Numbered from the stretch's first letter, positions 20,766 through 64,000 are shown. The stretch: DNA of 64,000 bases from Dehalococcoidia bacterium (GCA_965206275.1 OZ242203.1:1480474-1544473); one strand, 5' to 3'. Program-made: numbers and translations. Notes: a model not told the origin generated them from the sequence alone.

Positions 20766-20953
20766 GCCTGTACCCCCTCAGGACTCTTCCGCGTCCGCCC
20801 CACCCGGGGACGCCGAACGGCCCCTTATGCGGGGCGCGTCATGCCGCTGGAATTATACCATCCGAGAGCCGCGCCGCGTGGGGATGGGGAGGATGCAGAC
20901 AAGGCAGTCTACGCTTGATGCATTTCTCACGATGCGGCAAAGCAATCAAAGTA

Positions 20954-21026
20954 TGGAGCTGAGGGGAGTCGAACCCCTGACCTCTTCAATGCCATTGAAG
21001 CGCTCTCCCAACTGAGCTACAGCCCC
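20954..21026 (-). tRNA. tRNA-Ala (anticodon GGC)
   Basis: Reverse complement is GGGGCUGUAGCUCAGUUGGGAGAGCGCUUCAAUGGCAUUGAAGAGGUCAGGGGUUCGACUCCCCUCAGCUCCA. G3:U70 pair, anticodon loop AUGGCAU, no encoded CCA. Confidence 0.9.
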
Positions 21027-21286
21027 ACCGCGACAACCTGGGAATCGGACACTTTCGCCGCCGCGACGCGGCTTGCACGGCGTGCCGATGCGATTGCGTT
21101 CTCCAATTGTACAGTAGCGCGCTGATCCGGCGGCCACGCCGCGCCCCCACCCATAGCGCGAAACACTACAATGAATAGACGGTAATCAACTGCAATCGGC
21201 AAACACGCCGCCGCCGTGAGGCGCGAACGGAGACGGAGATCAACACGACGAATGGCAGAGAGGCGCGTCTTGCGCGCTTAAGAGAA

Positions 21287-40373: not shown

Positions 40374-40476
40374 TTTTAGACTTCGCGATCCGGCCTTGCC
40401 TGGTCGGTGAAGTCAGGATCCGCGTTCCGGCTTTATAAGTCCGTGAAGTCTGTCTGTATCGGTTCGTGATCCCTAA

Positions 40477-41271: not shown

Positions 41272-42960
41272 TCATCCAATCGTGGGGTCGTAGCTCAGTC
41301 GGGAGAGCACCTGCTTTGCAAGCAGGGGGTCAGGGGTTCGAATCCCCTCGGCTCCACCACCTCGGATGGTACTGCGAACTCCGTCGGTTAGGGCGAGTTT
41401 GGCGGTATCCGAATCGCCTATTGGGCTGTCTTCGGGCATGGGGATCGTGTAGACGATTGTCGCCTTGCCCGGCCTTACCTGAATCTCCCTGACGAATGAC
41501 CTAATGAAGGCGCGCGTCTCAGTCAGTTCGCTGGTTCGGAGATACTCACTCATATCAGCGGCGAAGGCAGTGATTGTCTCCGCCCGATCCAGCAGTTCGC
41601 GCCGTTCCGCTAATATTGCCCTGGCCTCATCGGCGGCCTGTTCGAGCTTCTCTCTGCGGTCCTTGAGTTCTCGGACGCGCTCGGCCGCGTCGGCCATCTC
41701 CATGTCGGTCGTCTCAATGACGTGCCAGATGCGTGCTAGTCGGCGTCTCACGTCCTCAAGCTCGCCCTCGATTGTTTCCAGCCGCCCACGCTGCTCATGT
41801 GCCAAGCCGTCCATCTCTTCATCGAGGACACTGACGAGACCTCGGATGTTGCCCTCAGTGAGGACGTTCTCACGGAGATTGCGAACGATTGTCTCCTCGA
41901 ACGACCTGGCATTGATGCGCGGCGTCTCGCAGGAGCCGGTGCCGGTCTTGATGATGGACTGGCAGACGTAGTAAGTGTACTTGCCGCTTTTGGCCTCGGC
42001 CGCGGTGAGGGCTTTCCCACAGAGGGCGCACGTGGCGAGTCCGCTGAGGAGGTAAGGGCTGGCGGCACGGCGCGGGTGGACGGTCATTGGCGAGCGGGCC
42101 TTCAACAGGCGGTTGACTCGTTGAAACTCCAGTTGGGTGACGATGGCGGGAAATGCGTTCTCGACGCGGACGGGCGGCGTGCCGTCCTTCGAACCTGTGC
42201 CCCAGACAAGAGTGCCGGTGTACGCTTCATTGACAAGGATCTTGTGAACTGTGGTGATCCGCCACTGACTGCCGGTCGACGTGGAGACGCCCTCGCCGTT
42301 GAGCGTCTTGGTCACGTCCATGAGTGACTTCCCCTTGAGCACCATGTCGAAGATGCGGCGCACGACGGTGTCGGCGGGCGGATCGAGGTCGAGACGGGGC
42401 CGTTTCTTCGCCCCGTCCTGCACGTAGACCCGCCGGTAGCCGAATGGAGAGCTGGATGTCACCCAGAAACCGCGTGACGCCGCCTCCCGCATTCCCCGTG
42501 TGACCTCCTGTGCCAAGTTCTCCGAGTAGAACTCATCTACGCTCTCGATGATGGCCTCCATGAGCTTGCCAGTGGGGGTGTCGTCGGCATGCTCGGTGAT
42601 GGAGACGACGCGGACACCCTTGCGGCGGAGCATGGACTTGAAGGCGACGGCGTGTTCGCGCTTGCGGGTGAAGCGAGAAAACTTCCAGACAAGAATCTCC
42701 TTGAAGGGAGCGTCCGATGCAGCAGCCGCATCGATCATCTTTCTGAACTGTGGACGGTCAGCGATACGCCCGCTCTCGGCCTCATCGATGTACTCGCGCA
42801 CGACGGTCTGGCCGTTCTTTGCCGCGTAATCCCGCAACGCCCTCAGTTGAGCCGCAACGGATAGATCAACGTCCTGCCGGTCGCTGGACACCCGTGCATA
42901 CAAAGCGACAGGCTCATACGTATCGCCTTGCGGCATTGTTGCATCAGTATTCTGCTTCAA
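41272..42960 (-). mobile_element. large serine recombinase (integrase); ORF extends antisense across tRNA-Ala
   Basis: N-terminal resolvase domain with catalytic LYARVSSDRQD, recombinase domain, Zn-ribbon CALCGK...YYVC and a coiled coil. The last ~29 codons are the reverse complement of the tRNA (EGIRTPDPLLAKQVLSRLSYDP). Confidence 0.85.
41284..41359 (+). tRNA. tRNA-Ala (anticodon TGC) with encoded CCA; integration site of genomic island
   Basis: GGGGUCGUAGCUCAGUCGGGAGAGCACCUGCUUUGCAAGCAGGGGGUCAGGGGUUCGAAUCCCCUCGGCUCCACCA. G3:U70 pair, anticodon loop UUUGCAA. Confidence 0.9.
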
Positions 42961-43332
42961 TGCAGGCCTCCTTTTAGTTCATTTGGCACGGTTGAGCTAC
43001 ATCTATACTTGTCATAACTATACGAGAGCAGTCAAGGCCACGAGGGACATCAACAAATAACTGCATACCGAAGTCTGATGGGGGCTTGCTCTGTTCCTGT
43101 CAGGCGACTGATTCGCGGCTGACAGTCGATCGAATAATTGGCAAGCGCCATCTCTTATCTGAAGTCAGGAATAACACACTACGAGTATGCGTACAGTGCC
43201 TCGCTGGGCCGGGTCAGGCGTTCCCAGGGACGCGTTCTATCCGTCCGCCCCCGATCCGGGCTCGGCTCTGGGGAGGACTTGCTCTCCGGCTCCGGATGTC
43301 CTCGATCTGCTCGCTGGGAGCCGATAGGGTGT

Positions 43333-43510
43333 CAATTCGAGCTTGATTGCCAAGAATACACGATAACTGCACGGATATAGAGGGTCGAAAAGCACAGAGA
43401 TGCCACACGGGCTCTGTATCGTGAAAAGCGGTACACCCAACGCGGTGGAGGGGGGTTTATCTGGCATTCGACCGGTGTGCTAACGCAGGTGAGAAGCGGA
43501 GACCTCATCC
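43333..43510. repeat. copy A of conserved ~170-nt intergenic element (divergent promoter region recombinase <-> mpaB-like)
   Basis: ~75-80% identical by eye to 48425..48600 (aatacacgataactgcacggatatagagg...ctgtatcgtgaaaag... versus aatacacaataactacacggataaaagagg...ctgtatcgtgagaag...). Confidence 0.7.
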
Positions 43511-43569
43511 CAAAACCCGTTCGCTATCCCGTGGGTCGAATGCCTCCCTAATCCCTGAACCCCCCGCCA

Positions 43570-43621
43570 TTCTTGATTCCGCGCAGGGTCCCTTCTGGGT
43601 AGAGCTCTGCGCGGAATCAAG
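43570..43621. promoter_or_regulatory. perfect 16-bp inverted repeat (tcttgattccgcgcag / ctgcgcggaatcaaga) with 20-nt loop
   Basis: Read directly. No downstream T-tract, so it is not a classic intrinsic terminator. Lies ~100 nt upstream of the 43718 start. Confidence 0.5.
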
Positions 43622-43717
43622 AACCTGTACAGGCGCGAGACGGCCGACTGCTTCCGATCCGCCTGTATTTGACCTTCGGCGGTCTGTAGAACCGCGCAGC
43701 AGACTGGAGGACTCTCA

Positions 43718-44905
43718 GTGACAGCCGCTGCCGAACCCCTGAAGATTCCCTCTGCCTACCTTGAGGGCTACAGTCGGGCTCGCGAAGTAGATCCCGAACT
43801 GGCGGAAATCTACATCCGGCACACGCTTGTCACCGACCCGCTCGCTGACGCCGCCATGGAGGCTCTCAGCAACCATGAGCCGACGCGGGCACAGGCGTTC
43901 ATTCAGGCGGGTATGGACGGCGACTACGAAACTCTGCGCAACGCCCCTCAGGCGTTGAGAACGTTCTTCGACTCGCTTGACCCGCCCGAGGGCATGCTCG
44001 ACCCAACAAGAGTCATGCCCGGCATCCGCGCCTTCCACAAATACTCCGACGTGTACTTCCTTGGCCTGCTCATCGACTCCATCGTCACCGGCTTCAGTAC
44101 CAACATAAGCAAGTCCTTCCATATGCGGGGCCGACTCGCGGGAAATCTCCGCCGCCTCAGGCAGAACACTCGCCACATCGTCGAGATCACCCTCCCGGGG
44201 GGGCTTGACCGCCACGGTGACGGCTGGAAGCTGACCATTCGCATCCGACTCACGCACGCCCGCGTCCGTCGCCTGCTTCTCGATTCGGGCGAGTGGGATG
44301 TGGCGGCAGAGGGGTTGCCGCTGCACGCCGCTCACATCGCGCTTGCCGCCAGCGGCTTCTCTGCCAACAGCATTGAGGCGGTGGGCAAGCTTGGCATCAA
44401 GATGAAGTCCCAGGAGCGCGACGATCTCATGCATATCTGGCGCTATACCATCTGGCTCCTAGGTGTCCCCGAGGAGATCTTCTTCAACAACGTCGAAGAG
44501 GCCATGCACCTGAAGGAGATCGGCTACCTCTGCGAACCGCGCCCGGACATCGAGTCCTCCGCCATGGCGCACGCCATCATCACCGCCGTCCCCGATCTCA
44601 TGAATATCACCGACCCCACACAGAAGAAGAAGGTCACGAGCGCAGTCTTCCGGGCCTCTCGTGCCCTCATCGGCGACGAACTCGCCGATGCCCTCGACTA
44701 TCCGAAGCAGTCGACCTTCGGGGCGCTGGCGCTCTTCCGGGCGCAGCGGCGGCTGCAGATGCTTGCGGCGCGCTTCATCCCCGGCGTCACCCCCCACTCC
44801 TTCAATAACTTTGCCGGGCTGCTCCAGCGCTCCGTCTATGACGAACACGGCATCAGCTACCGCCTGCCCGACGCCGTGAAGGATTCCGACTCGACTGCCT
44901 GGTAG
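43718..44905 (+). CDS. MpaB/DUF2236-like oxygenase family protein (tentative)
   Basis: 395 aa. RIRLTHARVRR resembles the conserved R-x-x-H-A-x-VR block of DUF2236/Lcp-like proteins. Confidence 0.45.
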   Translation: MTAAAEPLKIPSAYLEGYSRAREVDPELAEIYIRHTLVTDPLADAAMEALSNHEPTRAQAFIQAGMDGDYETLRNAPQALRTFFDSLDPPEGMLDPTRVMPGIRAFHKYSDVYFLGLLIDSIVTGFSTNISKSFHMRGRLAGNLRRLRQNTRHIVEITLPGGLDRHGDGWKLTIRIRLTHARVRRLLLDSGEWDVAAEGLPLHAAHIALAASGFSANSIEAVGKLGIKMKSQERDDLMHIWRYTIWLLGVPEEIFFNNVEEAMHLKEIGYLCEPRPDIESSAMAHAIITAVPDLMNITDPTQKKKVTSAVFRASRALIGDELADALDYPKQSTFGALALFRAQRRLQMLAARFIPGVTPHSFNNFAGLLQRSVYDEHGISYRLPDAVKDSDSTAW

Positions 44906-44964
44906 CGCCTCGTAACGGCCTGCTCCGGGAGGCCTGCCCGAATGTCCGACATAGCGCCGATTCC

Positions 44965-45840
44965 TTACCGACGAAGGCGCCGACGCAGCGCAACCACCCC
45001 CAGACCCGCGAGGATAGCGCCGATGCCGGTTATCAGGCCAATCGCCCAGATCGGCAGCCCGGAGCCGTCGACGGTCGGGGGCTGCGCGTTGGGAGTCGGC
45101 GAACTCTCGGGCTGGGTGGCCGGAGGCTCCACGACACTCAGTGTGTAGAAGATGCTGTCGTAGTAGAGGGCGCTCGGACCCTCGAAACCTGAGTCGGTGC
45201 CGACGATCAGCCAGACCCGGCCCTCGCTGTCCGAATTGACGCTCAGTGGCAGGTCTATATTGTCCAGGGTCTTGATCCGGTACTCCCTGTTCACCACGTC
45301 GGGGTGAGCCACATCGCCCACGACAACCATCGATTGACCGCCGTTGGCCTGGTTGCCCTTGTCGATGTTCATCCTGAGCCACCGGTTGCTGTCCTCTTCA
45401 GTCATTGGCTCGACGCTCGATACCCCGGCCTTGACGTAAACGCTCTCGCCGGGTGAGCCGCCTATGCCGAACAACCCGGCCGGTACGTTGGTGGCCATAT
45501 CAATGGATACATCCACCGCGTATGTCGTGTTCGGCATCAGTCCGCCAACCTGCCTCTTCAGATACATGAAGAGGTCGTCACTGCGGTTGTGTCCCTGGAC
45601 GTAGACGCCATTGCCTTCGAGCCCGTCTGGAAGCGAGCGATGCCCCTGACCGAGCTCGAAGATCTCCTGATCATAGTCCACGGGCAGGTCTGCGAACCCG
45701 ACCGTCCAGCCCTCGGCACCGCTCTCGAAGTCGAAGCTGAAGTCAATTCGTGTTCCATCCTGCGCAAGCACCACCAACGGGACGGACAGCATGGTCATGA
45801 TGACGAATACTGCAGTCGGCAGCACCCGCCATATGGGCAT
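44965..45840 (-). CDS. exported hypothetical protein with signal peptide, T/P-rich linker and C-terminal TM anchor
   Basis: MPIWRVLPTAVFVIMTMLSVPLVVLAQ signal peptide and C-terminal LPIWAIGLITGIGAILAGLGVVALRRRLRR. Confidence 0.5.
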   Translation of the reverse strand: MPIWRVLPTAVFVIMTMLSVPLVVLAQDGTRIDFSFDFESGAEGWTVGFADLPVDYDQEIFELGQGHRSLPDGLEGNGVYVQGHNRSDDLFMYLKRQVGGLMPNTTYAVDVSIDMATNVPAGLFGIGGSPGESVYVKAGVSSVEPMTEEDSNRWLRMNIDKGNQANGGQSMVVVGDVAHPDVVNREYRIKTLDNIDLPLSVNSDSEGRVWLIVGTDSGFEGPSALYYDSIFYTLSVVEPPATQPESSPTPNAQPPTVDGSGLPIWAIGLITGIGAILAGLGVVALRRRLRR

Positions 45841-45933
45841 GACGCAGCGTGGGCTTCGGACTGAGTTCTTCAACATATCCTCCGGGCGGCTGCAACTAGG
45901 AACGCCTGCTGGACACACGCCATGGACGCGGAG

Positions 45934-48324
45934 CTACTCTCTTTCACTTTGAGAAATCTCCGGCGCCTGTTGCAGGGGCTTCTCCATCCTGTAGCCGACG
46001 CGGGGCTCAGTGTGAATGTAACTGGGGTTGTCGGCGTCGTCCGCCAGTTTGTGGCGAAGATTTCTGATGAATGTGCGTACGGGACCGGAGTGGCCTGCGT
46101 GTCCCGGCCCCCATACCCGTTGCAGCAGGTGGTCATGGGTCAGCACGCGGCCAGCGTTGACCGAAAGCTCTACGAGTAGCCGGTACTCGATATCAGTCAA
46201 CCGGACTGGGCGTCCCGCCAGGTGGACCCGTCGCTCGGTGTAGTCGATGATCAGATTCCCCAGCCGGTAGGGTTCCGATGGCTCGGCCAGCTCGGGCGCT
46301 GCCCGTCGCCGCAGGGCCGTCTGGACCCTCGCCACGAGCTCAGTCGGCGAGAAGGGTTTGACTACGTAATCGTCTGCGCCGGCCTCCAACGCTCTGGCGA
46401 TGATCTGATCCCTGCCATAGGCCGACAGGAAGATCACGGGCACGTCAGAAAGCTCCGGGATGCTCTCCAAGAGTTCTATTCCGTCCGCTCCCGGCAGCAT
46501 CAGGTCGAGCAGCACCAGGTGCGGCCTCGCCTCCTCCACGAGACGGGCCACCTGTTGCGGGTCGCCCGTCACTATTGGCTCATATCCGGCATTCGCGAGC
46601 GCGTCCCGGACGAATCTGAGCGTCTGCGGGTCGTCATCCACCGCCAGAACGCGCGGCCGCTCCCGCCTCATCCTGCGGGTGCTGGTTGAGGCGCCGGGGG
46701 CGATGACCGGTACTGCGTGTCCGGCTTCTAGGACGACGGGTAGAGTGAACGCGAATCGGGTCCCCATGCCCGGTCCCTCGCTCTCTGCCCAGATGCGCCC
46801 CCCGTGTGCCTCCACTATCCCCTTGCAGATCGCAAGGCCCAGGCCCGAGCCGGCAATGCCCTCCCCACGCTCGTCCCCGTCGACACGTGAGAATTTCCTG
46901 AACAATTGGGGCATGAGGTCGGCGGACAAGCCTCTGCCGTCGTCGTCGACGCTGAAAACAACCTGAGCTTCGTCCTGCACGGCGGCTAACCGGATGACGG
47001 ACGACTCGGGAGAGTTCCTGGCTGCGTTGGTCAGCAGGTTGCCGATGACCTGGACGATGCGCCGCCGATCCGCCATCACCGCGGGCAGGTCCGGCTCGAC
47101 GTCAATCTCCATATTGTCTCTGCCTCCACCGCTGAGGAACGAACTCCTGGCCTGATCCACCAGAGCAGCGGCATCGGACGGCTCGGCGGAGACCGACAGC
47201 GTGCCCGACTCGATGCGGGCCATGTCGAGCAGGTCGGTGATCAGCGCGCTCATGTGGTTGGCCTGCTGCTCAATGATCTCGAAGAACAGGTCCATCTCCG
47301 CCGGGTCCAGCGACCTGGCCGACTCTTTCAGAGTTGTGGCGGACCCTTTGATGGAGGTGAGCGGCGCCCGCAGCTCGTGGCTCACGATGCCCAGGAACTC
47401 GGCCCGCTGCCTATCCATCTCCTCCAGCGGTGTCAGGTCCTGTATCGTGACGACGACGGACTCCACGTCGCCCTCATCCTTGCGGATGGGCGTGGCGTTG
47501 AGCAGCACGGTTACACTCCGGCCGTCCGGGACCTCGATGACGATCTCCTCGGCACGAACCGTCTCCGCCTCGCTCATCGCCTGTGCCAGGGGAAACTCCG
47601 CAAGGGAGAGCTCCCGCCCGTCCGCCCGCCGGGCCTTCGCCGTCTCCATTAGCCGCTCCAGCGGCTGATCCGGGTCTTGCAGGGCGTCGATGATCCTCGC
47701 GGCCTCCCGGTTGAACGACACGGGGGCTCCGGTGTCGGCGTCGAGCACGACGACGCCCACGGGCGAGGTGTTGACCAGCGTCTCCAGATTGGCCCTGGCA
47801 CGCCGCTCGTCCCGGTGCCTGCGGGCGTTGGCGATCACCAGCGCCGCCTGGGACGCGAACATGACGAGGGTCTCCTCGTCCTCCCGGCTGAACTCCTGAC
47901 CGGGACCGCTACGGGCGAGGTAGATGTTGCCCACGCCCTCTCCACCGTGGCGGATGGGCGCGGCGAGGAAGGAACTGACCGGCACGGGAGGGCGAAATTC
48001 GGGAAGACCCAGGGAGCTCATGTGGGCACTGAAATCTGCGAGTCGCAGCGGGTCGGGCATGGCGCTCAAATGCTCCAGGAACCGGAAACCCTCCGGCAAC
48101 TCCCATAGCCGCTCGGCCTCCTCGGGGGTCAGGCCCGCTCCCAGGAAGTCCTGCAGGCCGCCTGAATCGTCCAGCACGACGAGCACGCCGTAGCTGGCGC
48201 CGGTCAAGGACCGGGCGCTTTCGAGGACCTCCTGCAGCACCGTGTCGAGGTCGAGACTCTCGTTGATGCGCAGGCTGGCCTCGCTGAGCCGTGTCAGGCG
48301 CTCCCCCAGGGACCGGTTTTCCAT
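45934..48324 (-). CDS. sensor histidine kinase (GAF-PAS-HisKA-HATPase) fused to a complete OmpR-type response regulator (REC plus winged helix)
   Basis: H-box IVSHELRAPLTSIKG, G-box GSGLGLAICKGIVEAHGG, REC RVLAVDDDP...LLDLMLPGADG, and C-terminal Trans_reg_C (RLTDIEYRLLVEL...EPRVGYRM). Confidence 0.85.
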   Translation of the reverse strand: MENRSLGERLTRLSEASLRINESLDLDTVLQEVLESARSLTGASYGVLVVLDDSGGLQDFLGAGLTPEEAERLWELPEGFRFLEHLSAMPDPLRLADFSAHMSSLGLPEFRPPVPVSSFLAAPIRHGGEGVGNIYLARSGPGQEFSREDEETLVMFASQAALVIANARRHRDERRARANLETLVNTSPVGVVVLDADTGAPVSFNREAARIIDALQDPDQPLERLMETAKARRADGRELSLAEFPLAQAMSEAETVRAEEIVIEVPDGRSVTVLLNATPIRKDEGDVESVVVTIQDLTPLEEMDRQRAEFLGIVSHELRAPLTSIKGSATTLKESARSLDPAEMDLFFEIIEQQANHMSALITDLLDMARIESGTLSVSAEPSDAAALVDQARSSFLSGGGRDNMEIDVEPDLPAVMADRRRIVQVIGNLLTNAARNSPESSVIRLAAVQDEAQVVFSVDDDGRGLSADLMPQLFRKFSRVDGDERGEGIAGSGLGLAICKGIVEAHGGRIWAESEGPGMGTRFAFTLPVVLEAGHAVPVIAPGASTSTRRMRRERPRVLAVDDDPQTLRFVRDALANAGYEPIVTGDPQQVARLVEEARPHLVLLDLMLPGADGIELLESIPELSDVPVIFLSAYGRDQIIARALEAGADDYVVKPFSPTELVARVQTALRRRAAPELAEPSEPYRLGNLIIDYTERRVHLAGRPVRLTDIEYRLLVELSVNAGRVLTHDHLLQRVWGPGHAGHSGPVRTFIRNLRHKLADDADNPSYIHTEPRVGYRMEKPLQQAPEISQSERE

Positions 48325-48424
48325 GTCTCATCCCCATTCCGGGCCGGGCTCTGCGGAATTCTTGTGCCTCGCCGGCGCCCGGATGGCCTCATGTTGGTCG
48401 TTGAGGACCGGTTTTGGGGCGAGT

Positions 48425-48600
48425 GTAGCGAATTTATTGAAAATACACAATAACTACACGGATAAAAGAGGTTGCAAGACACAGAAATACGACACACGCG
48501 CTGTATCGTGAGAAGCCAGTACTCAAGCGTGACGGGATAGTTTCACCTGGGATTCAACCGGTCGACCAATGGAATCGGGGCGGCGAGGCTGAGTCCCATG
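48425..48600. repeat. copy B of conserved ~170-nt intergenic element (divergent promoter region HK-RR <-> giant protein)
   Basis: See copy A. Ends ~30 nt before the 48629 ATG. Confidence 0.7.
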
Positions 48601-48628
48601 AAGGCTTCTAGAGAGACGTGCAAACCCG

Positions 48629-51600
48629 ATGACCAACTCCGGCATTAGCTCTATATCCCCTTACATAAAGTGTTGGGCGCGGCATCATGAACGGACGCCT
48701 CCTTCCCACCGTTCGCGGACGGGCGTTCCTCGCCCCCTGTTCCTCCTCCTGGCAGCACTGGCCGCCGTCGCCTTTGTGCTCCTCTCCCCGACCCCGACCA
48801 ACGCGCAGAACGCGGACGACTGCGCCGGGGACAGGACCACCACCTGCTCCATCGCGGTGGGCAGCTCCGTCACCGGCGAGATCGAGAGCGCCAGCGATGT
48901 CGATTACTTCAGCATCTCCGTCACGTCGGGCGCCATCTACCAGTTCGACCTGGAAGGCTCGCCCACAAGCAAGGGAACGCTTGCGGACCCACACCTCAAT
49001 CTCTGGGGCAGCACCGGCGCCACCAGTCTTACGTCAGACAACAACAGCGGCACCGGCAATAACGCCCGCATTACCTGGACCGCCACCGGCACGGGGACCT
49101 TCTATGTCGCGACCTCTTCGAGTAACCCCGGCGCCACGGGCACCTACACCCTCACGGCGGCGGTCGCCCCCGTCACCCTGATCAGCAATGTGGGCCAGGG
49201 CGCGGATAGTGAAAATACTGGCAGCATCGATTATGCGCAGAACTTCACTACCGGGAGCAACTCGGGCGGTTACACGTTAACCAGCGTCGAAATCGTTTCA
49301 GAAGATCCTGAAGGTGACGATGCAAGCGTCTCTCTATGTACGGTCGATGCTTCGGGATTCCCAACTTCCGACTGTACGGCGCTTACGGCGCCGGGCAGTT
49401 TTGCGGCCGGAACGCTTGCGTTCACTGCCCCCGGCAATACGACGCTTGACGCCAACACGACCTACACGCTCCTCATTACTTCACCCGGCGGAGAAACTCT
49501 TACCTGGGACGCGACCACGTCCGACAGCGAGGACACGGGTGGAGCGACGGGCTGGAGCATCGCAAACGCCTATCACTTTAAGAGCCCCGGCTGGAGAACC
49601 ACCTCCAGCGGTAAATCGTTCCGCATCACGGTCAAGGGCACGGTGAAGGCGGACGTCCCCGGCGCCCCGACGAGCCTCACTGCCACCGCCGGCGACGCCC
49701 AGGTGGCACTGAGCTGGGCCGCGCCGGCCAGCGATGGCGGCGCGGCGGTCACGAAGTACCGCCACCGCCACAAGCTGAGCTCCGCGTCCACCTGGGGCAG
49801 CTGGACCGAGGTGACCGGCACGGCGGCGACGGTCACCGGCCTGACCAACGGCAGCGCCTACGACTTCGAGGTGCAGGCGAACAACTCGTCGGGCTGGGGC
49901 GCAAGCGCCTCGGCCAGCGCCACGCCGGCGGTGGGGCTCGGCGTTCACATCAGCCTGAACAGCGCCCAGACCAGCCCCATCGGCATGTGGTCCCCCGACG
50001 GCGAGACCCTGTGGGTGGGGCAGTGGACCTCAAGGCAGATCTACGCCTTCGACCTGTCCGACGGGAGCGAGGATACCTCGGAGGGATGGACCCTCACCAA
50101 CCCCGGGGCCGGCAGCGACAACAACATCAAGCCCACGGGCATCTATTCCGACGGCACCCACGTCTGGGTGTCCGACGCCGACCACGACCGGGTGTTCCGG
50201 TACGACTTCAGCAGCAAGTCGCATAACAGCGTCAACCTCGCGCTGCACAGCGACAACGGCAAGCGCCAGGGCCTCTGGTCCAACGGGACAACGGCCTGGA
50301 TTGCCGACAGCGACGACAACAAGCTCTACGCCTACACCCTGTCCGACTTCAGCCGCGACAGCGGCAAGGACATCGACCTGCACAGCGACAACGGCGAAGT
50401 CCGGGGCATCTGGAGCGACGGAACAATCATCTGGGCGCTGGACAGGGATGACGAGGTGATCTACGCCTACACCCTGTCCGACGGGAGCCGAGACGCGGAC
50501 CTCGACATCGACCTGCCCTCCGAAGGCGTCAACTACAACAGCATCTGGTCCGACGGGACCATCATGTACGTCATCGAGAACGCCGCCGGGTCCACCCGCA
50601 GCCCCCACATTCACCGGCTGCGGATGCCGCGGACCGTCGTCCTCGACCCCGTCCTGCTCAGCAACACCGGGCAGGCGCGAGACGGCCTTGATGACATTTC
50701 CACTTACACCTGGGCCGCGCAGCAGTTCACCACCGGGTCCAACGCCGCCGGCTACACCCTGAGCAGCGTCTCGGTGAGCCCCACCTTTACGGGAACGCCG
50801 TCGGTGACCATGTCGCTGCGCGCGGACGACGGCTCGGACAATCCGTCGTCCACTGATCTGGCCACCTTCGCCCCTCCCACGACCTGGTCTAGCGGGAATG
50901 CGAATGTGTTCACCCTGTCGACGCCCGTCGAATTGCAGGCGAACACCAAGTACTGGGTGCGCATGACGGCCTCGACCAGTTTTGAGGTCCCTTATGCCGA
51001 CGGCTCGAACTTGGACAGCGGCAGCCAGGCCGGTTGGGACGTCGAGCGTTCCTGCGACCCTGACGCCTGCTATACCGATGCCATCTACCAGATGATCCTG
51101 CGCGGCACGGTGGCGGTCCCGGCCGACGTGCTGCTCAGCAACACCGCGCAGACCTCGCTTACAGACGGCACTCAGTTCGACGGATTTACTTGGTTGGCGC
51201 GGCAATTCACGACCGGGCCCGACTCCGGTGGTTACATGCTGGGCAGTATCAGGTTGCTCGGCGGTGGATCGCAGAATACGGTGCCGATCAGCGTGTCCTT
51301 GCGCGCGGACAACGGCTCGAACCGGCCGTCGTCCACTGATCTGGCGACCTTCAATCCGCCGTCGTCGTGGGTTGACGGGGAGAACCTCTTTACCCGGTCG
51401 TCGGCTGTCACTTTGCAGGCGAATACCAAGTACTGGGTGTACATCGACACCTCATCAGCGATTGGCGCCGATGTTGCCGTACTCAAGCGTACCCTGAGCG
51501 ACCAGTTTGTCGGCAAAAGCGGTTGGAGCTTCGGGGGAGCATGTTTCAAGGAAACCGGTAACGTCCCCGTCAGTTGTGAGCTAGGTGATCCAGCAACCTA

Positions 51601-57571: not shown

Positions 57572-57728
57572 CGACTCTACCGGGAGGGCGGCGCATCCTT
57601 TCATCCATTGAAGAGCGACTTGCGGCTCTGGGCCTGACTGGCGGGCTTCTGGGGAAGGCCAGAATTGCGCTACGCAACACGCTGACGGACGGTGTGCGGA
57701 CTGCACCGACAGAACAAACCAGGAGGCC

Positions 57729-57911
57729 ATGATGGCGTCACGACCAATCACCGAGGGGTATCTGGACTCACATATGAATTCCGTGCGCCATGACCTAAGT
57801 ATCGAGATTCAACGAGCGGAAACCCGTATCCTCCGTGCCATCGTTGGCGCTACTGTCTTCACGTCTTTCCTGATAGCCATAACCGCATTGTTGCTCACAT
57901 GGACAGGGTGA
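57729..57911 (+). CDS. small membrane protein (60 aa, C-terminal TM helix)
   Basis: Strong RBS aggagg 5 nt upstream of the ATG. Charged helical N-terminus plus a TM segment. Overlaps the amidohydrolase start. Confidence 0.4.
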   Translation: MMASRPITEGYLDSHMNSVRHDLSIEIQRAETRILRAIVGATVFTSFLIAITALLLTWTG

Positions 57912-59683
57912 GTGTGCATAGGTATATAAGCGCCTTGCTTTTCATTCTTGCGCTGACTGTCGCTTGTGCTGAATCACGAGAAGTCGCAGCGCCTGACGAA
58001 ACTCCTCCATCCGAGACGGTTTACATGAATGGCCGAGTCTTCACCCAGGACAAAGACCTGCCCTGGGCTGAGTCGCTGGTGACGGATGGGGACAGGATCG
58101 CCTTCGTGGGTTCCGATGAAGATGCTTTGCGATTCGCCGCTGAAGGTAGCAGGGTCGTAGACCTGCAAGGCCAGTTCGTGATGCCGGGGATTGTTGACGC
58201 GCACACGCACCCCGGACTGATCAGCGTTTGGGGCGATCTGTCAGCCCTGGAAGACGACGCCGGCGACAGCGAATCCGACGCAGACAGGATGCCCTCGGGG
58301 CCGCCGGAAGCAACCCTAGCTTGGCTGCAGCAGTACGCAAAGGACCACCGATTCACCTATGTTATTTCCCATGCGGGATGGGATGTCGCCGCCTACCTTC
58401 CCGACGGCCCCCACAAGAGGGACTTGGACAAGATAGCCAGGTTCAGACCCATCGTGTTGTACGACAATTCTGGGCACAGCGTATGGGTCAACTCCGCAAT
58501 GCTCCGATGGTTGGGCATCAACAGAGACACGCCGGACCCCAGCGAAAACCTTTCCTATATCGTGCGCGACGAGGACGGAGAACCCACCGGCTGGCTCAAG
58601 GAGTTTGTCCTGACCCACCACAGCGGCGGCAGGTTCGTCCCGGGCCACGACAAGCTGAAGGAGCGGATGCAGACGTACCTGGACTACATGTCAAGCAAGG
58701 GCATTACCACGATGCTGGACGCCGGAAACTTCAACATGGACGACGCCGTGTACAAGGCTGCGCATGAACTCGTACGAGAGGGCAGAATGCCGCTGCGCTG
58801 GGAGGCGACGTACCACGTATGGCTACCGGAACACATCGATACCGCTGTGGACTCCCTCACCCGCCTGAGGAAGGAGTACGGCTATGGCAACCTGCGGTTC
58901 AATACCATCAAGATTCACTACGACGGCCTGCAGGACGTTCTGACGGCCGCCATGCTGGAGCCCTACGTGACGGACCCCGACAACTACGGCGGCGTGCTGT
59001 TCTCGACGGAGCGAATGAGCAGCTTCATCCGGGAACTGGACGCCCACGGCATCAACCTGCACGTGCACACCGTTGGCGACCGCGCGACGAGGAATCTTCT
59101 GGACGCAGTCGAGCAGGCGCGGGACGCGCTGGGACGGCCCCTTAGGATGGAGGTCACGCTGAGCCACTTGTTCACCGTCGCAGAGGAGGACATCGCTCGA
59201 TTTGCCGAGCTGAACGTTCACGCCAACTTCACGCCCCACTGGTTCGGCGGAACGGTGTTCGGGGATGCTGGAGCGATCAACATCGGCCCGGAGCGTGCCG
59301 CCCGCTCTCAGGTCATCGGCCACTTCGTGCGAGAAGGGGCGAACATTACGCTGTCCAGCGACGTCATCCACGGCCCCGCGCGGGTGAACCCCTTCATCGG
59401 CATGCAGATGAGCATGACAAGGCGGGCAATTGAAGGGACCGACGCCGTCGCGCTGCCGCCGGCCAACGCCAGGATCTCGCTGGAGCAGGCGATTGCCGGC
59501 TACACCGTCAACGGCGCTGCGCAACTCGGTATGAAAAGGGAGATTGGCGCAATCAAAGCGGGACTGCTGGCAGACTTCATCGTCCTTCCACAGAACCCGT
59601 TTGAAACGGACGTGGAGAACATCCACACCATAGAGCCTAGCGCGACGATTGTGTCCGGTGTCCTGCGAAGCGGAGGCTTTTGA
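57899..59683 (+). CDS. amidohydrolase family (Amidohydro_3-like) lipoprotein
   Basis: Lipoprotein signal LFILALTVAC. Metal-binding VDAHTHP at the N-terminus of the barrel. 594 aa. Confidence 0.78.
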   Translation: MDRVSVHRYISALLFILALTVACAESREVAAPDETPPSETVYMNGRVFTQDKDLPWAESLVTDGDRIAFVGSDEDALRFAAEGSRVVDLQGQFVMPGIVDAHTHPGLISVWGDLSALEDDAGDSESDADRMPSGPPEATLAWLQQYAKDHRFTYVISHAGWDVAAYLPDGPHKRDLDKIARFRPIVLYDNSGHSVWVNSAMLRWLGINRDTPDPSENLSYIVRDEDGEPTGWLKEFVLTHHSGGRFVPGHDKLKERMQTYLDYMSSKGITTMLDAGNFNMDDAVYKAAHELVREGRMPLRWEATYHVWLPEHIDTAVDSLTRLRKEYGYGNLRFNTIKIHYDGLQDVLTAAMLEPYVTDPDNYGGVLFSTERMSSFIRELDAHGINLHVHTVGDRATRNLLDAVEQARDALGRPLRMEVTLSHLFTVAEEDIARFAELNVHANFTPHWFGGTVFGDAGAINIGPERAARSQVIGHFVREGANITLSSDVIHGPARVNPFIGMQMSMTRRAIEGTDAVALPPANARISLEQAIAGYTVNGAAQLGMKREIGAIKAGLLADFIVLPQNPFETDVENIHTIEPSATIVSGVLRSGGF

Positions 59684-59780
59684 GCAGCCTGTCGGATACC
59701 GCCGAAAGAAGCGAGATCTATATGCCTATGCAGAACGACATTGTAGGCGACGATGAACAACCGCGATCTTAGCGATAACA

Positions 59781-59866
59781 CTGGAGGGCGATACACTTCA
59801 GTCCTGCGAACAAGGTGAGCACTTGAGTTGGTCTCGGAGTGGTGAGACTAGGGACATTCCGCGCAA
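59781..59866. repeat. degenerate ~85-nt direct repeat, copy 1
   Basis: gggcgatac...tgcgaac...ttgagttggt...ggtgag...taggg shares its motif order with 60113..60200. Confidence 0.4.
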
Positions 59867-60112
59867 GAGAACATGAGCGTACTTGGCCACTATGAATGGA
59901 CTAACCACGATTCAAGGAAAGTGCTTGCTATCGTTTCACTTGCTGGCGAGTTTAGTTCAGTTACCCCTGACAGGACTGGATGGCGAACTTTCCAGTTGGT
60001 CGTTGTGTTGCAACGATAGCAGAGCTGTGGTGAGCGACAGTCTGAGGATCGGTGGCCCTCACTCCACCTCCGGCCCAGCGAATTCCGCTTGAGCTTCCGA
60101 GTTCGAGACCTC

Positions 60113-60200
60113 TACGTTGGGCGATACGGGTCGATATTGCGAACTGAGCGCGTGTTTGAGTTGGTGGTTGATTGGTGAGGGTAGGGGCTGAAACTTCATG
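60113..60200. repeat. degenerate ~85-nt direct repeat, copy 2
   Basis: See copy 1. A third weak partial match lies at ~59990..60040. Confidence 0.4.
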
Positions 60201-60202
60201 CG

Positions 60203-60616
60203 TCAGGTCTGTTCACCGTCTCTCAACAGCGCGACAAATCCCGCCTGTTCGAAGTCTTGATCGTAGGACAGAGCTTCAATAATGCCACACGCTTCCATCA
60301 CCAAGAAGCTTGCGCAGTCAGTGAGGCTCCAAGTCTGGTCGGCGCGAGGCACATATCGTTCGACAGCAGCCCAGAAATACGCATCGGTTTGAGAAGCGAT
60401 TTCGACCGAGGGATCGTCCTATATCTGCCTGACCATCTCGACGGCAGATGCGCGACGGGATTCGCCGAGGCGTGACGTGTCATTCAACGCCTCGGTGAGC
60501 ACCATCTGAGTTGTCACTACCTGGGTGGAGCCGAGTGTCGCAGCGGTCGCTATCGCGTGTTCGTGCAACTCATCACCGGAGCTCATGAGGGCAATTCCAA
60601 TATCCCGTGTCAGCAA
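60203..60616 (-). pseudogene. PIN-domain (VapC-like) toxin gene interrupted by in-frame TAG (complement of 60419..60421)
   Basis: Translation is MLTRDIGIALMSS...AIATAATLGSTQVVTT...VRQI*DDPSVEIASQTDAYF...LTDCASFLVMEACGIIEALSYDQDFEQAGFVALL. PIN N-terminal LTRDIG and C-terminal D..SF.VM....I.EALT.D.DF..AGF blocks share one frame on either side of the stop. Confidence 0.65.
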
Positions 60617-60628
60617 AGACCGTGGGCA

Positions 60629-60934
60629 CTAGTTCTTTGCCTTGGGGTGGCCGTAGAGGTAGTGCTTAAAGTTCTTGGCGCTGTCAGGCGGGACGCCTTC
60701 CCACAGATCCGGAGGGTAAGATTCGCGCAGCTTCTCGATCCTTTCGACAAGGCCGAGAAGCCCCTTTGACTTGTCGGACTCGTCATCAGTGGAATCTAAG
60801 GAAATCCCGTCACCCTTCCCATGGTAAGTAGGGTCACTGTGAACGGACACGACCACCTCTTTCCCTTCCTCCAAGGCGAGGGGTTCCAGAGGCGTCAGGA
60901 CGCCCTTTTCGTATTTGGCCCTTATCGTAGCCAC
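60629..60934 (-). CDS. DUF104 (AF2212-like) family antitoxin
   Basis: MATIRAKYEKGVLTPLEPLALEEGKEVVVSV is the characteristic DUF104 N-terminus. Immediately upstream of the PIN gene on the same strand. Confidence 0.6.
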   Translation of the reverse strand: MATIRAKYEKGVLTPLEPLALEEGKEVVVSVHSDPTYHGKGDGISLDSTDDESDKSKGLLGLVERIEKLRESYPPDLWEGVPPDSAKNFKHYLYGHPKAKN

Positions 60935-61226
60935 GAATAAACTCCCGAGGATTGCCGTCGACAGCGACTATACTTGTGATCCCTTTGCGCCAGTATAGCG
61001 AGAGAACTGATTAGTCTTTGATGCACCGAAGGTCGAGTGCCAGGGCTGTAGCACAGATCGTAGGAAATTCCAGATGCCGCCTTGAATGCATTGCCGAGAG
61101 CAGCTTTATGGCCGGGGCAAAGGCAATGACAGGAAAGGTTGGCATAACCGACGAATTCGATGACAGTCAGCTCAACCGGCGACACTATAGCTGTACAATT
61201 CAGGTAGCGCATTGTAGGTGGTCGTG

Positions 61227-64000
61227 ATGTCTCTGGCGAGTTTCCCTGGCGGTTCAGCGGCAAAGGTTGCCGACCTGTATGAAGCGGCGTGGACTGCCGA
61301 CTCTCTACTTGACCTCATCTCAGGCAGGGTGGTCGAGATCAGGTTCGAACCTCAGGGCCCGGACGGACAGGGTGTTGAATTCTATAGGTCGCTTCCTGAC
61401 AGCTCAAAGGAGTTCCATTCCGTTAAGCGCCAGGCTCCTGGCTCTGCAAGCGCGTGGACACCCTATCGGTTGACAGGAGCCCAAGACTCGACCGGAAGGA
61501 GCATCCTTGGCGACCTGTTTGGGCATCTTGATGAGGACCCACACGCCCGAGCCGTCTTCGTTAGCCAAGATAGCGCGGGCGAAATTCGTGAAATCTCTGA
61601 GCGCGCTAAGGCACTGTCTGACCACCGAGAATTCGTCGATGCGCTTTCAGAGATGCAGGCAAAATCACTCAGTGAAAGAATAGTCTCCATTGCTAGGGAT
61701 GCACACGATGCACACGAGAAGCTCGCGCGATGCGATTTCGAGACTATTGGCCACAACCAACTGCTTAGGCTAGTCGATGGTAGAATTCCGGCTCTAGTGA
61801 AAAGAGCGGATGGAGCTGACTTCGACCCTGCAGATGTCCGCAGATTCTTGAGCGAATTTGCCTGGCAACACTTGGGCTCCGATCCAGTAAGCCAAAGTGA
61901 CTTGGTTGCCGCGCTGCATGTTCGGGGATTTGCCGCGACTCCGTTACAGCGCGACGCCGCTGTACAAGAACGGGTCAAGGCGATAAACGGGGCCTTTACG
62001 GGCCGTGCTACGAGAACGCTCATTAACGGCAACTACATCGTCCGGCACCAAGCTAGGTCGATAGCAGATGACCTCATACACGGCGAACAATCGCTCATGC
62101 TGTCGGGAAATGCTGGCGTGGGCAAGACTTGCGTACTGGCGCAAGTCACCGAAATCCTTACGGGCGAAGAGATCCCGTATCTTGCTATTTCAATTGATGC
62201 TATAGAAGGTGCTCTCTCCTCCACGGATCTAGGTCGTAAGTTGGGGCTGCCAACATCTCCCGCGACTGTTCTCGGAGAGATCGCCGAAGGACACCGGGCA
62301 ATTCTCTGTGTGGACCAAGTTGATGCGTTGAGTTTTGTGGGCGGCCGCAATCCGCAGGGACACCAGATTTTGGAAGAGTTGATCGGAGAGACCAAGAATT
62401 ATCCTAATCTACTGATTTTATTGGCTTGCCGATCCTTCGATCTCGAGAATGACCGCATCCTCAAAGGACTGGTTGAAGGTGGGTTTCCAGCGGCCAGGCG
62501 CATCGATGTCGAACTTTTGAGCGATGAAGACGTGCAGACCGTCCTTTCAGCGGCTGGTGTGCCGCAAGATATCCTTGAGTTTAGGCAGCTTGAATTGCTG
62601 CGAATTCCCCTTCACCTGTATCTGTTTCTGGGCGGCAATAGATCCCCAAACGCTGCTTGGTCAAGAAGGAGCCTCTTCGATGCCTATTGGGATGAGCTGC
62701 AACGTCGAGTCGACCCGTCTCTAGGAACTGGTGCATTCCGAGATGCAGTAAAGAGCCTCGCAAACATGTTGAGCAGTCGCCGGCGCCTTCGTGCACCTAA
62801 GGTTAGCCTAGACGCACACGTTTCGACCTTGGACGCGATGGCCTCTGAAGGGGCTGTCGTTATGGATGACACCACAGTGAGTTTCTTCCATGCGACATTT
62901 TTTGACTATGCGTTCGCGAGGGGCTTTGTCGCGACTCAACAGGACCTAGTCGGATGGCTCCTTAGTGATTCCCAAGAACTCTTCCGACGTAGCCAAGTTC
63001 GACAGGTCCTGGAATTCCTGAGGGACGGAGATCTTGGAGCCTACTTGGATGTCCTAGGTCGTTTCCTGAACGATGGCAGAATTCGATTCCATCTGAAGCG
63101 ACTGGTGCTTGACTGGTTGGGACAGCTTTCGACCCCGCTGCTAGGCGAATGGCAGATACTCGAAGGATTAGACGAGAAACTCGCGGGTCACATGCTAAGC
63201 GCCATCTACAACAGAGTCCCGTGGTTCGACTTGCTCAATGAGTCGGGGTATCTCGACGAATGGACTAAACTTGGCAGTCAAAGTCGCCTCCAGCGAGCTT
63301 ACTACTTGTGTCAATGGCCAGGTGTTTTCTTGTTGCGCTCCGAAATCGCAGCATATCACCTCCGGAGGATGGCCGACGGAGATAGTGCCTATAGGGCGCG
63401 ATTTGCCTCTAGGATGACTTTTGGGGATGTCCATCACAGTCGCGAGATGTTCGACGTTTTTCTTGAGTTCCTTCGCGACGGTACCCTTGATGGACTAGGT
63501 GGCTCAGGTGGGGCTGGTGACTGGTGGCTGATGCTCTCAAAGATGTCCAGGGAAAACCCGGGATTCTGTTGTGAAGCGATTGGATGCTGGCTTGACCGAC
63601 AGGAGGAATTAGATCCGCCTGAAACGGACATCGATCAGATTGGCGGGGCTTGGTGGAGCAATTTCAGCGAGGAGGTTATTCGGGAGTCGGCATCTAGAGC
63701 TCCTACTCAATTCGCGTCAGAGATCTTCCCTCGAGTAGCAATTGCTGCCATGGGTGAAGAACGTCGCCAATGGGAGTACTTTCTTGCTCCGGTTCGTCAA
63801 CATCTGATTGAAGGGCTTTCGGACGCTCTGAGCAAATTGTCCCAAGAAGACCCCGAAACCCTAGACAGTCTCTTTGCTTCTATCACGCAAGATGCACCCA
63901 AGCTCATCCAAGGGTTACGACTCCGAGCTTGGGCGGCCAATCGTGAGCAGTATGCAAACATGATCCTAGAGTTTCTCATTGGCCACCAAGACCTCTGGCA
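61227..64000 (+). CDS. large NACHT/STAND-like P-loop NTPase, 5'-partial view (at least 924 aa, runs off window end)
   Basis: Hand translation from ATG 61227 (SD aggtgg 8 nt upstream, stop TAG at 61215 in frame) shows no stop codon to position 64000. The other five frames are littered with stops and the ORF track shows no competing ORFs. Walker A LSGNAGVGKTCVLAQV, Walker B-like AILCVDQVDALS (compare the NACHT hhhhDGhDE motif), then >500 aa of W-rich helical repeats. Lower GC than the chromosome. Confidence 0.6.
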   Translation, partial: MSLASFPGGSAAKVADLYEAAWTADSLLDLISGRVVEIRFEPQGPDGQGVEFYRSLPDSSKEFHSVKRQAPGSASAWTPYRLTGAQDSTGRSILGDLFGHLDEDPHARAVFVSQDSAGEIREISERAKALSDHREFVDALSEMQAKSLSERIVSIARDAHDAHEKLARCDFETIGHNQLLRLVDGRIPALVKRADGADFDPADVRRFLSEFAWQHLGSDPVSQSDLVAALHVRGFAATPLQRDAAVQERVKAINGAFTGRATRTLINGNYIVRHQARSIADDLIHGEQSLMLSGNAGVGKTCVLAQVTEILTGEEIPYLAISIDAIEGALSSTDLGRKLGLPTSPATVLGEIAEGHRAILCVDQVDALSFVGGRNPQGHQILEELIGETKNYPNLLILLACRSFDLENDRILKGLVEGGFPAARRIDVELLSDEDVQTVLSAAGVPQDILEFRQLELLRIPLHLYLFLGGNRSPNAAWSRRSLFDAYWDELQRRVDPSLGTGAFRDAVKSLANMLSSRRRLRAPKVSLDAHVSTLDAMASEGAVVMDDTTVSFFHATFFDYAFARGFVATQQDLVGWLLSDSQELFRRSQVRQVLEFLRDGDLGAYLDVLGRFLNDGRIRFHLKRLVLDWLGQLSTPLLGEWQILEGLDEKLAGHMLSAIYNRVPWFDLLNESGYLDEWTKLGSQSRLQRAYYLCQWPGVFLLRSEIAAYHLRRMADGDSAYRARFASRMTFGDVHHSREMFDVFLEFLRDGTLDGLGGSGGAGDWWLMLSKMSRENPGFCCEAIGCWLDRQEELDPPETDIDQIGGAWWSNFSEEVIRESASRAPTQFASEIFPRVAIAAMGEERRQWEYFLAPVRQHLIEGLSDALSKLSQEDPETLDSLFASITQDAPKLIQGLRLRAWAANREQYANMILEFLIGHQDLW

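Follow-up and report, generated by a model that had tools for sequence, protein, structure and literature searches.

A stretch of 64,000 nucleotides from a Dehalococcoidia bacterium (GCA_965206275.1 OZ242203.1:1480474-1544473), referred to here as the window, contains a tRNA-Ala(TGC) gene that is the integration target of a large serine recombinase (LSR). The tRNA gene (41284..41359, plus strand; ARAGORN; Rfam, 70.6 bits) is intact, with G3:U70, and forms the B half of the attachment site attL. It is wholly overlapped by the 3' end of an open reading frame (ORF) on the opposite strand (41272..42960, minus strand), which encodes the LSR, an integrase of 562 amino acids. The ORF starts with a TTG codon at 42960, located 6 nucleotides after a GGAGG site. 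The N-terminal part of the product carries the Resolvase catalytic domain (PF00239, E 3e-33, residues 18-164), including the motif ALYARVSSDRQ, and is followed by the domains Recombinase (PF07508, E 4e-22) and Zn_ribbon_recom (PF13408, E 1e-12). By these domains, the protein is a large serine recombinase. Its conserved part ends at about residue 530, and the reading frame is closed by a TGA at 41272-41274, 10 nucleotides past the 5' end of the tRNA gene, with no in-frame stop before it. An earlier note, made from the sequence, had described a serine integrase ORF reading antisense through the tRNA, and this is what was found: no stop occurs until the entire tRNA has been crossed. The same note had counted the last ~29 codons as tRNA antisense. 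The host-encoded read-through tail (41275..41359, minus strand; GGAEGIRTPDPLLAKQVLSRLSYDPTIG) in fact consists of the last 28 codons, of which roughly 25 are antisense to the tRNA, and it also includes 9 nucleotides beyond the 5' end of the tRNA. As judged from the translation and from the C-termini of homologues, this tail varies among members of the family.

The LSR is under strong purifying selection (dN/dS, the ratio of nonsynonymous to synonymous divergence, 0.05-0.10). It is identical to the database protein P0361, which is encoded on a public contig together with the amidohydrolase that is also present in the window. Upstream of the LSR, a conserved block of its clade with leader and promoter-like sequence (CCTTGACTGC..GTTATGACAAGTAT..) occupies 42961..43092 (minus strand), and homology with all relatives stops at its end. 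A scan of the DNA upstream of the LSR with a strict sigma-70 promoter consensus gave no match. On the other side of the tRNA gene, a 44-codon ORF (41126-41260, plus strand; MAKEYGG..RKRRRGFGLLELSVLMAA..), likely encoding a membrane peptide, is located between rnhA and the tRNA; gene calling also reports it at the corresponding position in most of the relatives examined (L081, L083-L087, L089 and L090; L numbers denote the loci that were compared).

Relatives that were reached via RnhA orthologues revealed how the locus looks in the absence of the integrase. The tRNA-Ala(TGC) gene next to rnhA has no recombinase in L087, L088 and L083, of which L083 has kept a 52-nucleotide remnant of the LSR 3' end. 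In the sample ERZ25069412, identical RnhA proteins are encoded on two contigs, L089 and L081. The contig of the dominant strain (L089, 16x coverage) has an empty site, ..GGCTCCACCA|CCGCACGTATTC.., followed by a flank designated Z (CCGCACGTATTCAGTGCAGGATCTG..; CCGCACGTATTCAGTGCAGG..) with the ABC-transporter genes ABC_tran, BPD_transp and SBP_bac_3. L081 (2x) carries an LSR at tRNA-Ala(TGC) and then a type I restriction-modification system; L090 is the same ERZ25069412 variant. The integrase of the window thus sits at an integration site, as the earlier note had proposed, with empty tRNA-Ala(TGC) sites next to rnhA in L087, L088 and L089. A gene order conserved across the taxon with no empty site, which that note had named as speaking against integration, is not what the relatives present. 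Flank Z also occurs in L083 and is found nowhere in the window, and non-ancestral DNA therefore reaches position 64000. Moreover, the synonymous divergence (dS) between the window and L081 is 0.026 for rnhA and 0.87 for the LSR, and the cargo is unrelated, which indicates that the two strains acquired different elements at the same site. A second variable spot lies nearby: HsdM, HsdS and HsdR, which make up a type I restriction-modification system, are encoded by DNA inserted between rnhA and nifU in L088 (10480-17278).

The comparison with L081 also locates the left junction. Identity amounts to ~99.5% at 40420-41357, to ~85% from 41358 through the LSR, and is random beyond 43092; at 41358, CCA is replaced by CTT. 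The boundary between host and element hence lies at 41357/41358. On its element side, the P' half-site of the attachment site (41358..41382, minus strand) is part of the LSR coding sequence, as derived from a junction table of ~55 loci and a 65-site consensus. It contains the conserved motif GGAGTTCGCAGTA at 41369-41382, which is always 10 nucleotides from the tRNA end and for which the variant GAGTTATGA occurs in the family. The motif and the 10 nucleotides are followed by the antisense of the tRNA 3' end (TGGTGG..). All 49 tRNA-class sites of the consensus lack a stop at the junction.

A second target site is present in the window. The tRNA-Ala(GGC) gene (20953..21027, minus strand; ARAGORN), in which CCA is not encoded, is unoccupied, as revealed by comparison with L010 and L082. 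The empty site reads ..CAGCTCCA|TACTTTG and occupied sites read ..CAGCTCCA|CCACCCCGGAAAGTACTGCGAAC; the occupied orthologue in L010 reads ..CAGCTCCA|CCACCCCGG... Since the empty site and L010 differ from nucleotide 74, nucleotide 74 and those that follow are element DNA. Indeed, an orthologous LSR abuts tRNA-Ala(GGC) in L010 and L082, and the bases after A73 are element-derived (CCA in L010, CTT in L082). A candidate recombinase remnant beside the empty tRNA-Ala(GGC) gene was rejected, as the tblastn match was to the tRNA antisense only. The ancestral order appears to have been X (11425-20912), tRNA-Ala(GGC, minus strand), a 20.4-kb segment, tRNA-Ala(TGC, plus strand) and Z. The LSR is found at the TGC end in the window, L001 and L081, and at the GGC end in L010 and L082; in CAZZAN010000006.1, a complete LSR at GGC is accompanied by a remnant at TGC. 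Furthermore, the 20.4-kb housekeeping segment (20953-41359) is inverted in L087, with both breakpoints 40-135 nucleotides from tRNA 3' ends, and the DNA corresponding to 11425-20912 of the window adjoins tRNA-Ala(TGC) there. In this lineage, tRNA ends are hot spots of rearrangement.

The LSR of the window belongs to a large family. Its database homologues number more than 5000. The top 120 share 70% identity or more with it, although their lengths vary between 529 and 852 amino acids. Their C-termini are antisense peptides of differing tRNAs, so the tail varies in length and sequence. For the family survey, 80 loci were fetched from more than 540 matches in the representative genomes scanned; all are from Dehalococcoidia or other Chloroflexota metagenome-assembled genomes (MAGs). 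A complete antisense tRNA is located exactly at the LSR 3' end in 56 of the 83 LSR copies that were scored for the tRNA junction, over 14 tRNA species, and the named targets comprise tRNAs for Ala (three anticodons), Ile, Met, Lys, Arg (two), Val (two), Leu, Glu and Gln. The window fits the family, with an LSR at least 66% identical and the conserved motif GAGTTCGCA/GAGTTATGA 10 nucleotides from the antisense tRNA 3' end. The same element can be found at different tRNAs. For instance, L016 (at Ala-TGC) and L046 (at Ile-GAT), from two different MAGs, are 99.99% identical at the nucleotide level over 11.56 kb, LSR included; the shared element spans 1-11563 in L016 and 1-11562 in L046, and homology ends ~9 nucleotides past the junction. 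This suggests recent activity and a relaxed choice of the tRNA. Family elements often occur several per genome, and the chromosome OZ241919.1 harbours three copies, 96-97% identical, at Ala-GGC, Ala-TGC and Lys-TTT. A phage origin was considered and rejected, as a search of IMG/VR gave no relatives.

The elements of most family members exceed 10 kb and end with the LSR gene. The usual order of the backbone is a TrwB/TraG-like type IV coupling protein (T4CP), Replic_Relax, DUF3800, XRE-HTH, an ImmA-like M78 peptidase and the LSR. The HTH and M78 pair is present in 49 of the 80 loci, and T4CP and/or Replic_Relax in 48, including the clade members L003 and L005. No match to T4CP, Replic_Relax or the ImmR/ImmA backbone was obtained anywhere in the 64 kb of the window. 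None of the backbone genes, the XRE-HTH/ImmA-like (M78) pair included, is present in the closest LSR clade either (L001, L004, L010, L081 and L082). Within this clade, homology stops ~130 nucleotides upstream of the start codon, and L081 and L001 each have different accessory-type DNA beside the LSR.

Some loci of the family have no tRNA next to the LSR. Convergent LSR pairs with 52-59% mutual identity, whose 3' ends abut a shared TGGTGGGCC core at ~11560-11620, were observed in L019, L028, L033, L047, L049, L064, L069, L070, L072 and L074. T4CP and Replic_Relax lie on the far side of the second LSR in L028, and a T4CP match is also present there in L033. The pairs may have arisen by tandem or inverted accretion or by attL x attL recombination. 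In L012, L034, L037, L040, L042, L053 and L077, a conserved 45-nucleotide arm, TGACGGTAGACAGAACCGTCTTCGAGATGTGG, replaces the tRNA after the LSR core (~11590-11635), and homology between the elements ends at once after it. The arm, which is of the P type, has no match in Rfam. In L077, a second LSR is located 9.6 kb beyond the arm, a spacing that suggests internal junctions of tandem arrays.

The sequence shared by host and element is very short. Copies of one element at different targets have only TGGTGG in common past the junction and diverge from position +7, and the core shared across the family comprises only 6-10 nucleotides. Where an LSR is not followed by a tRNA, TGGTGGGCC comes next and is succeeded either by the conserved arm or by the 3' end of another LSR in convergent orientation. 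Such attP-like sites seem to form a 50-bp dyad, GTTC-N-core-N-GAAC, with GTTC at -20..-17, GAAC at +27..+30 and the axis between +5 and +6. The GAAC of the tRNA T-loop is at +21..+24, i.e. 6 bp nearer to the axis than the GAAC of the P arm. In elements at tRNA-Arg genes, AC takes the place of GG at the axis, in the tRNA as well as in an attP-like site (L028). Central dinucleotides have to match in serine-integrase recombination, and the AC at the axis of the tRNA-Arg genes and of the L028 site fits this rule. The identity break, the comparison of empty with occupied sites, the divergence of element copies from +7 and the dyad point to a crossover at tRNA nucleotides 71-73; the putative crossover zone in the window (41354..41357) corresponds to nucleotides 71-74, and the exchanged dinucleotide would most likely be C71-C72 or C72-A73. 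According to Rutherford and Van Duyne, the zinc-ribbon motif of attB half-sites reportedly lies ~5 bp nearer to the centre than that of attP half-sites. The T-arm of the tRNA would thus be the B half-site that the integrase recognises.

These data bear on what the earlier note had said about the tRNA. It had suggested that integration reconstituted the tRNA 3' part from element DNA; however, the tRNA is host DNA save at most its last 3-5 nucleotides (72/73-76), and the antisense codons of the integrase are host-encoded. The note had failed to find a second att repeat inside the window, and there is indeed no second copy of the 25-nucleotide tRNA 3' half in the window, even with up to 3 mismatches. 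The long direct repeat of the tRNA 3' half that it expected further downstream does not agree with the 6-10-nucleotide core of the family, and no direct repeat of at least 13 nucleotides was found within 10 kb in ~55 family loci. Other candidates for the second site were rejected. The 9-mer GCTCCACCA gave matches at chance level, its sole other exact copy being on the wrong strand, and matches to the P' motif in inverted orientation, as a candidate for the second arm, were likewise at chance level. P-arm motifs taken from other loci (GACGGTAGACAGAACC.. and GGACGAAATCAAGAACC) and the pattern GTTC-N14-21-core yielded nothing convincing at 43-64 kb; a weak match at 61412 was dismissed.

The interpretation that we favour, with a probability of about 0.8, is that the LSR is the integrase of a Dehalococcoidia element family that targets the 3' ends of tRNA genes, that its junction with the host is at 41357/41358 and that the DNA to its right is an additive mosaic. 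According to this model, the attachment site of the element would straddle the 3' end of the integrase gene itself, the P' half-site (GGAGTTCGCAGTA plus 10 nucleotides) being coding sequence. The crossover would take place in the short tRNA-like core (antisense TGGTGG.., nucleotides 71-73), upstream of the native stop codon of the integrase, and integration would fuse the ORF to the antisense of the targeted tRNA, whatever its identity. The ORF would read through the tRNA because the crossover is upstream of the native stop and the antisense frame of the tRNA is open. The tail would be a by-product, with the tRNA remaining host-encoded and intact and the element contributing only about nucleotides 73/74-76. 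The universal T-loop GTTCGAA, which is 6 bp nearer to the crossover than the GTTC/GAAC of P-type arms, would provide the spacing of attB as opposed to attP, and its recognition would explain how a single integrase can serve at numerous tRNAs with C71-C72 in common. In the window, the element would have entered tRNA-Ala(TGC), and the DNA up to 64000 would have replaced the ancestral flank. This DNA consists of the LSR module (41358-43092), strain-specific accessory genes, a cassette native to the lineage and a low-GC segment with a toxin-antitoxin pair and an NTPase. The position of the junction, the empty sites, the use of many tRNAs, the purifying selection and the mosaic make-up are established by the data; the order in which the parts accreted is something we infer, as are the exact crossover dinucleotide and the recognition of the T-loop.

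A bolder extension of this model, which we consider improbable, holds that a single integrase reads the universal DNA image of the T-arm and the acceptor and inserts at any tRNA with matching nucleotides 71-72, and that the exchange of the C-terminus and the stop codon acts as a sensor of the integration state. The free form would have the native end, the integrated form would carry an antisense tail of 25-45 amino acids and be transcribed head-on into the tRNA, and the difference would tune the stability, the directionality or the expression of the integrase.

Several observations weigh against the favoured interpretation. No backbone gene and no gene resembling a recombination directionality factor was found near the LSR of the window, which may no longer be able to mobilise its neighbourhood. 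Neither a right-hand att site nor a P-arm motif was found in the window, so that no right end of the element is defined within it, and no excised (attP) form of the LSR clade of the window was seen. The crossover position is derived from sequence comparison alone. The shift of 6 bp matches the reported 5 bp only approximately, and the B' half-sites of the empty sites have no recognisable motif. In addition, the attP-like sites elsewhere in the family may not be free attP sites but junctions inside tandem arrays.

The DNA right of the integrase begins with accessory genes. An MpaB-like gene (MPAB_Lcp_cat, Pfam; 43718-44905, plus strand) is followed by an unassigned ORF (44965-45918, minus strand) and by a gene for a hybrid sensor kinase/response regulator, which is a GAF-PAS-HisKA-HATPase-REC-Trans_reg_C fusion (Pfam; 45934-48324, minus strand). 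For these genes (43355..48324), neither tblastn nor tblastx gave a match in the other loci of the set of 88. They are followed by a cassette (48400..59709, plus strand), delimited by synteny with L091, that comprises a regulatory region, a gene for a surface protein of 2980 amino acids with fn3/PPC repeats (Pfam; 48629-57571, plus strand) and a gene for an amidohydrolase (Amidohydro_3, Pfam; 57899-59683, plus strand). In L091 (ERZ24894577), the cassette is syntenic at 76-89% nucleotide identity in the middle of a 620-kb contig. The adhesin/amidohydrolase cassette is native to the lineage. Two regions of ~130 nucleotides at 43355-43480 and 48442-48570 (plus strand) resemble each other; a 75-nucleotide core is 77% identical and contains the inverted repeat CACGATA...TATCGTG. 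This region precedes the MpaB-like and the giant fn3 genes and flanks the hybrid kinase/regulator gene; in L091, too, it is present in front of the giant gene. The region has no match in Rfam and is probably a shared operator or leader.

The homology with L091 ends at 59709, exactly where the GC content drops, and a separate, compositionally distinct low-GC segment (59710..64000; GC 0.53-0.56) extends to the end of the window. It contains a gene for an AF2212-like antitoxin (60629-60934, minus strand; profile matches) and a PIN toxin pseudogene (60206-60616, minus strand), which is interrupted in frame by a stop codon at 60419-60421, so that the two genes form a decayed toxin-antitoxin pair. 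PIN/AF2212 pairs related to this one adjoin LSR elements in L040, L048 and L072. Apart from such generic PIN/AF2212 modules, no cargo in common with the other LSR loci was detected by tblastn or tblastx. The last gene (61218 to beyond 64000, plus strand) encodes a STAND/Avs-like NTPase of more than 927 amino acids that runs off the window; a weak AAA_16 match and the PADLOC assignments Avs2 and PDC-M54A make an antiviral STAND protein possible. No second recombinase is present in the window.

The tetranucleotide similarity to the 1-41 kb region drops from 0.86-0.93 to 0.39-0.79 right of the tRNA, in line with the compositional difference expected in the earlier note. That note had also reported that GC falls in the recombinase region and again after 59.7 kb. 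The first drop does not exist, as the recombinase region (0.589-0.612) lies within the range of 1-41 kb (0.55-0.64, mostly 0.59-0.64); the second is real, from 0.56 to 0.53. Its list of accessory genes largely agrees with the Pfam assignments, except that the PIN toxin of its toxin-antitoxin pair has an in-frame stop. Its island of at least 22.7 kb is correct insofar as non-ancestral DNA continues to 64000, but the view that this DNA is one element is not supported. The region 41358-64000 is best read as an additive mosaic that LSR elements seeded at the tRNA, and not as one clean island, with its far end beyond the window.

How much of this DNA the integrase brought along can be explained differently. 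A possible, albeit rather doubtful, explanation is that the element DNA is confined to the 1.75-kb LSR module (41358-43092), which would be insertion-sequence-like or else the last remainder of a decayed element, and that the DNA to the right is flexible chromosome of the strain that was moved to the tRNA by a rearrangement at the att site. The loss of homology ~130 nucleotides upstream of the start codon, which is seen in the closest LSR loci without exception, would agree with such a stranded integrase, and so would the missing backbone genes and the lineage-native adhesin cassette. It would also be compatible with the breakpoints at tRNA 3' ends, where the 20.4-kb segment is inverted in L087. 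However, there is no P-arm or core-like sequence beside the promoter block. Moreover, in most family members the LSR terminates an element larger than 10 kb, and the differing accessory DNA beside the LSR in L081 and L001 is what would be expected of cargo.

It is less likely that, as the earlier note had it, the LSR of the window inserted all the DNA from 41358 to beyond 64000 as a single element in one integration event. In favour of this explanation, the relatives with the same locus lack all DNA right of 43092, flank Z does not reappear in the window, and the composition differs from that of 1-41 kb throughout. However, the cassette at 48.4-59.7 kb is syntenic in a relative, in which neither an LSR nor a tRNA is present within 21.7 kb of it. 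Its dS is also not above that of housekeeping genes: in the comparison of the window with the L091 genome, the amidohydrolase has a dS of 0.32 and housekeeping genes of 0.38-0.69. The sharp break of GC and homology at 59709 and the lack of T4CP, Replic_Relax and ImmR/ImmA, given that ~60% of the family loci have a backbone, equally argue against a single element.

Very unlikely is the idea that the LSR is a domesticated resident recombinase that captures and exchanges cassettes in an integron-like manner or inverts the DNA enclosed by the two tRNA-Ala genes. The LSR is indeed intact, under purifying selection and devoid of backbone genes, several relatives have orthologous LSRs with differing neighbours at these two genes, and the segment between the tRNAs is inverted in one relative. 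However, the divergence of the LSR is decoupled from that of the host (dS 0.87 as compared with 0.026 for the adjacent rnhA, L081). Empty sites are common, even in the dominant strain of the same sample, and 11.6 kb of element DNA moves together with identical LSRs. Finally, it is hardly credible that the antisense-tRNA extension is an artefact of ORF calling and the real protein shorter, even if the tail varies in length and sequence between homologues and McMurdie et al. thought such a tail unlikely to be functional (PMC3146451), as no in-frame stop exists from the conserved C-terminus to 41272, so that any translation must include the tail, and as the stop is missing at the junction in 49/49 tRNA-class consensus sites and the homologues are 529-852 amino acids long.

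The LSR elements thus explain why tRNA 3' ends coincide with synteny breaks, strain-specific islands and inversions in these genomes. They also account for the recurrent recombinases of 529-852 amino acids with tRNA-antisense tails. In the window, a genuine integration site is present whose left junction has been precisely mapped, and the neighbouring 22 kb are a mosaic flexible region rather than one imported element; the locus is a backbone-less member of the family. Serine integrases are usually regarded as highly site-specific on protein-coding genes, and tRNA targeting as a hallmark of tyrosine integrases. In this family, serine recombinases target tRNA genes, and an identical enzyme is sometimes found at different tRNAs. 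If the T-loop is indeed what is read, such integrases would lend themselves naturally to insertion at conserved sites present in many copies. No description of this tRNA-targeting family was found in the literature searched, the coverage of which is incomplete.

Among known systems, the classical tRNA island of a tyrosine recombinase does not describe the locus, since the integrase is a serine recombinase and a repeat of 15-50 nucleotides of the tRNA 3' end is lacking. The fusellovirus SSV1 has a tyrosine integrase, targets a tRNA and carries attP inside its int gene, which is split by integration. In both SSV1 and the window, the att site is within the integrase ORF; however, only the extreme C-terminus and the stop are exchanged here and the gene stays intact. 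The best NCBIfam matches of the LSR are CcrA, CcrB, CcrC and XisF, with E values of ~1e-30 that are far below the family cut-offs. Like the LSR, the Ccr recombinases of SCCmec are serine recombinases that move cargo at the 3' end of a conserved gene, but the homology is distant, the target is rlmH (orfX) and the recombinase ORF does not overlap the target. The tycheposons of Prochlorococcus are tRNA-anchored hypervariable islands in which heterogeneity is highest beside the tRNA and gain, loss and inversions occur (10.1101/2020.12.28.424599). They mostly rely on tyrosine recombinases, on one tRNA per clade and on partial-tRNA repeats, whereas the family described here uses serine recombinases, almost no repeat and many tRNAs.

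The closest parallel is provided by the ssrA islands of Dehalococcoides. Their recombinase DsiB, a CcrB-like large serine recombinase of ~540 amino acids, is encoded by an ORF that overlaps attL and ssrA and stays open until it has passed through the RNA gene or the adjoining island (McMurdie et al. 2011, PMC3146451). The window, which stems from the same bacterial class, likewise has a reverse-strand LSR at the island edge beside a tRNA-like RNA gene, and the family shares with the DsiB islands the integrase ORF that runs over attL without a stop, the tandem arrays and the strain-specific cargo. However, the relation to DsiB is known through the shared CcrB-like affinity alone, and the systems differ in several respects. 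DsiB targets ssrA, whereas ordinary tRNA genes (14 species) are used here; in the window, ARAGORN found no transfer-messenger RNA, and Rfam at the gathering threshold matched only two tRNAs. The crossover is in the T-loop for DsiB and would be at the acceptor end (nucleotides 71-73) here, and a 20-bp direct repeat contrasts with a core of 6-10 nucleotides, the far boundary in our case being beyond the window. Furthermore, DsiB is accompanied by the small serine recombinase DsiA, RecF, ParB, Mom and a primase, and the family by T4CP, Replic_Relax and ImmR/ImmA-like proteins; the window contains neither set, and the genes beside its LSR have Pfam matches of other kinds. The family is thus a tRNA-targeting variant of the DsiB theme, in which the read-through mechanism has a published precedent and the breadth of the tRNA range and the near lack of a repeat are new.

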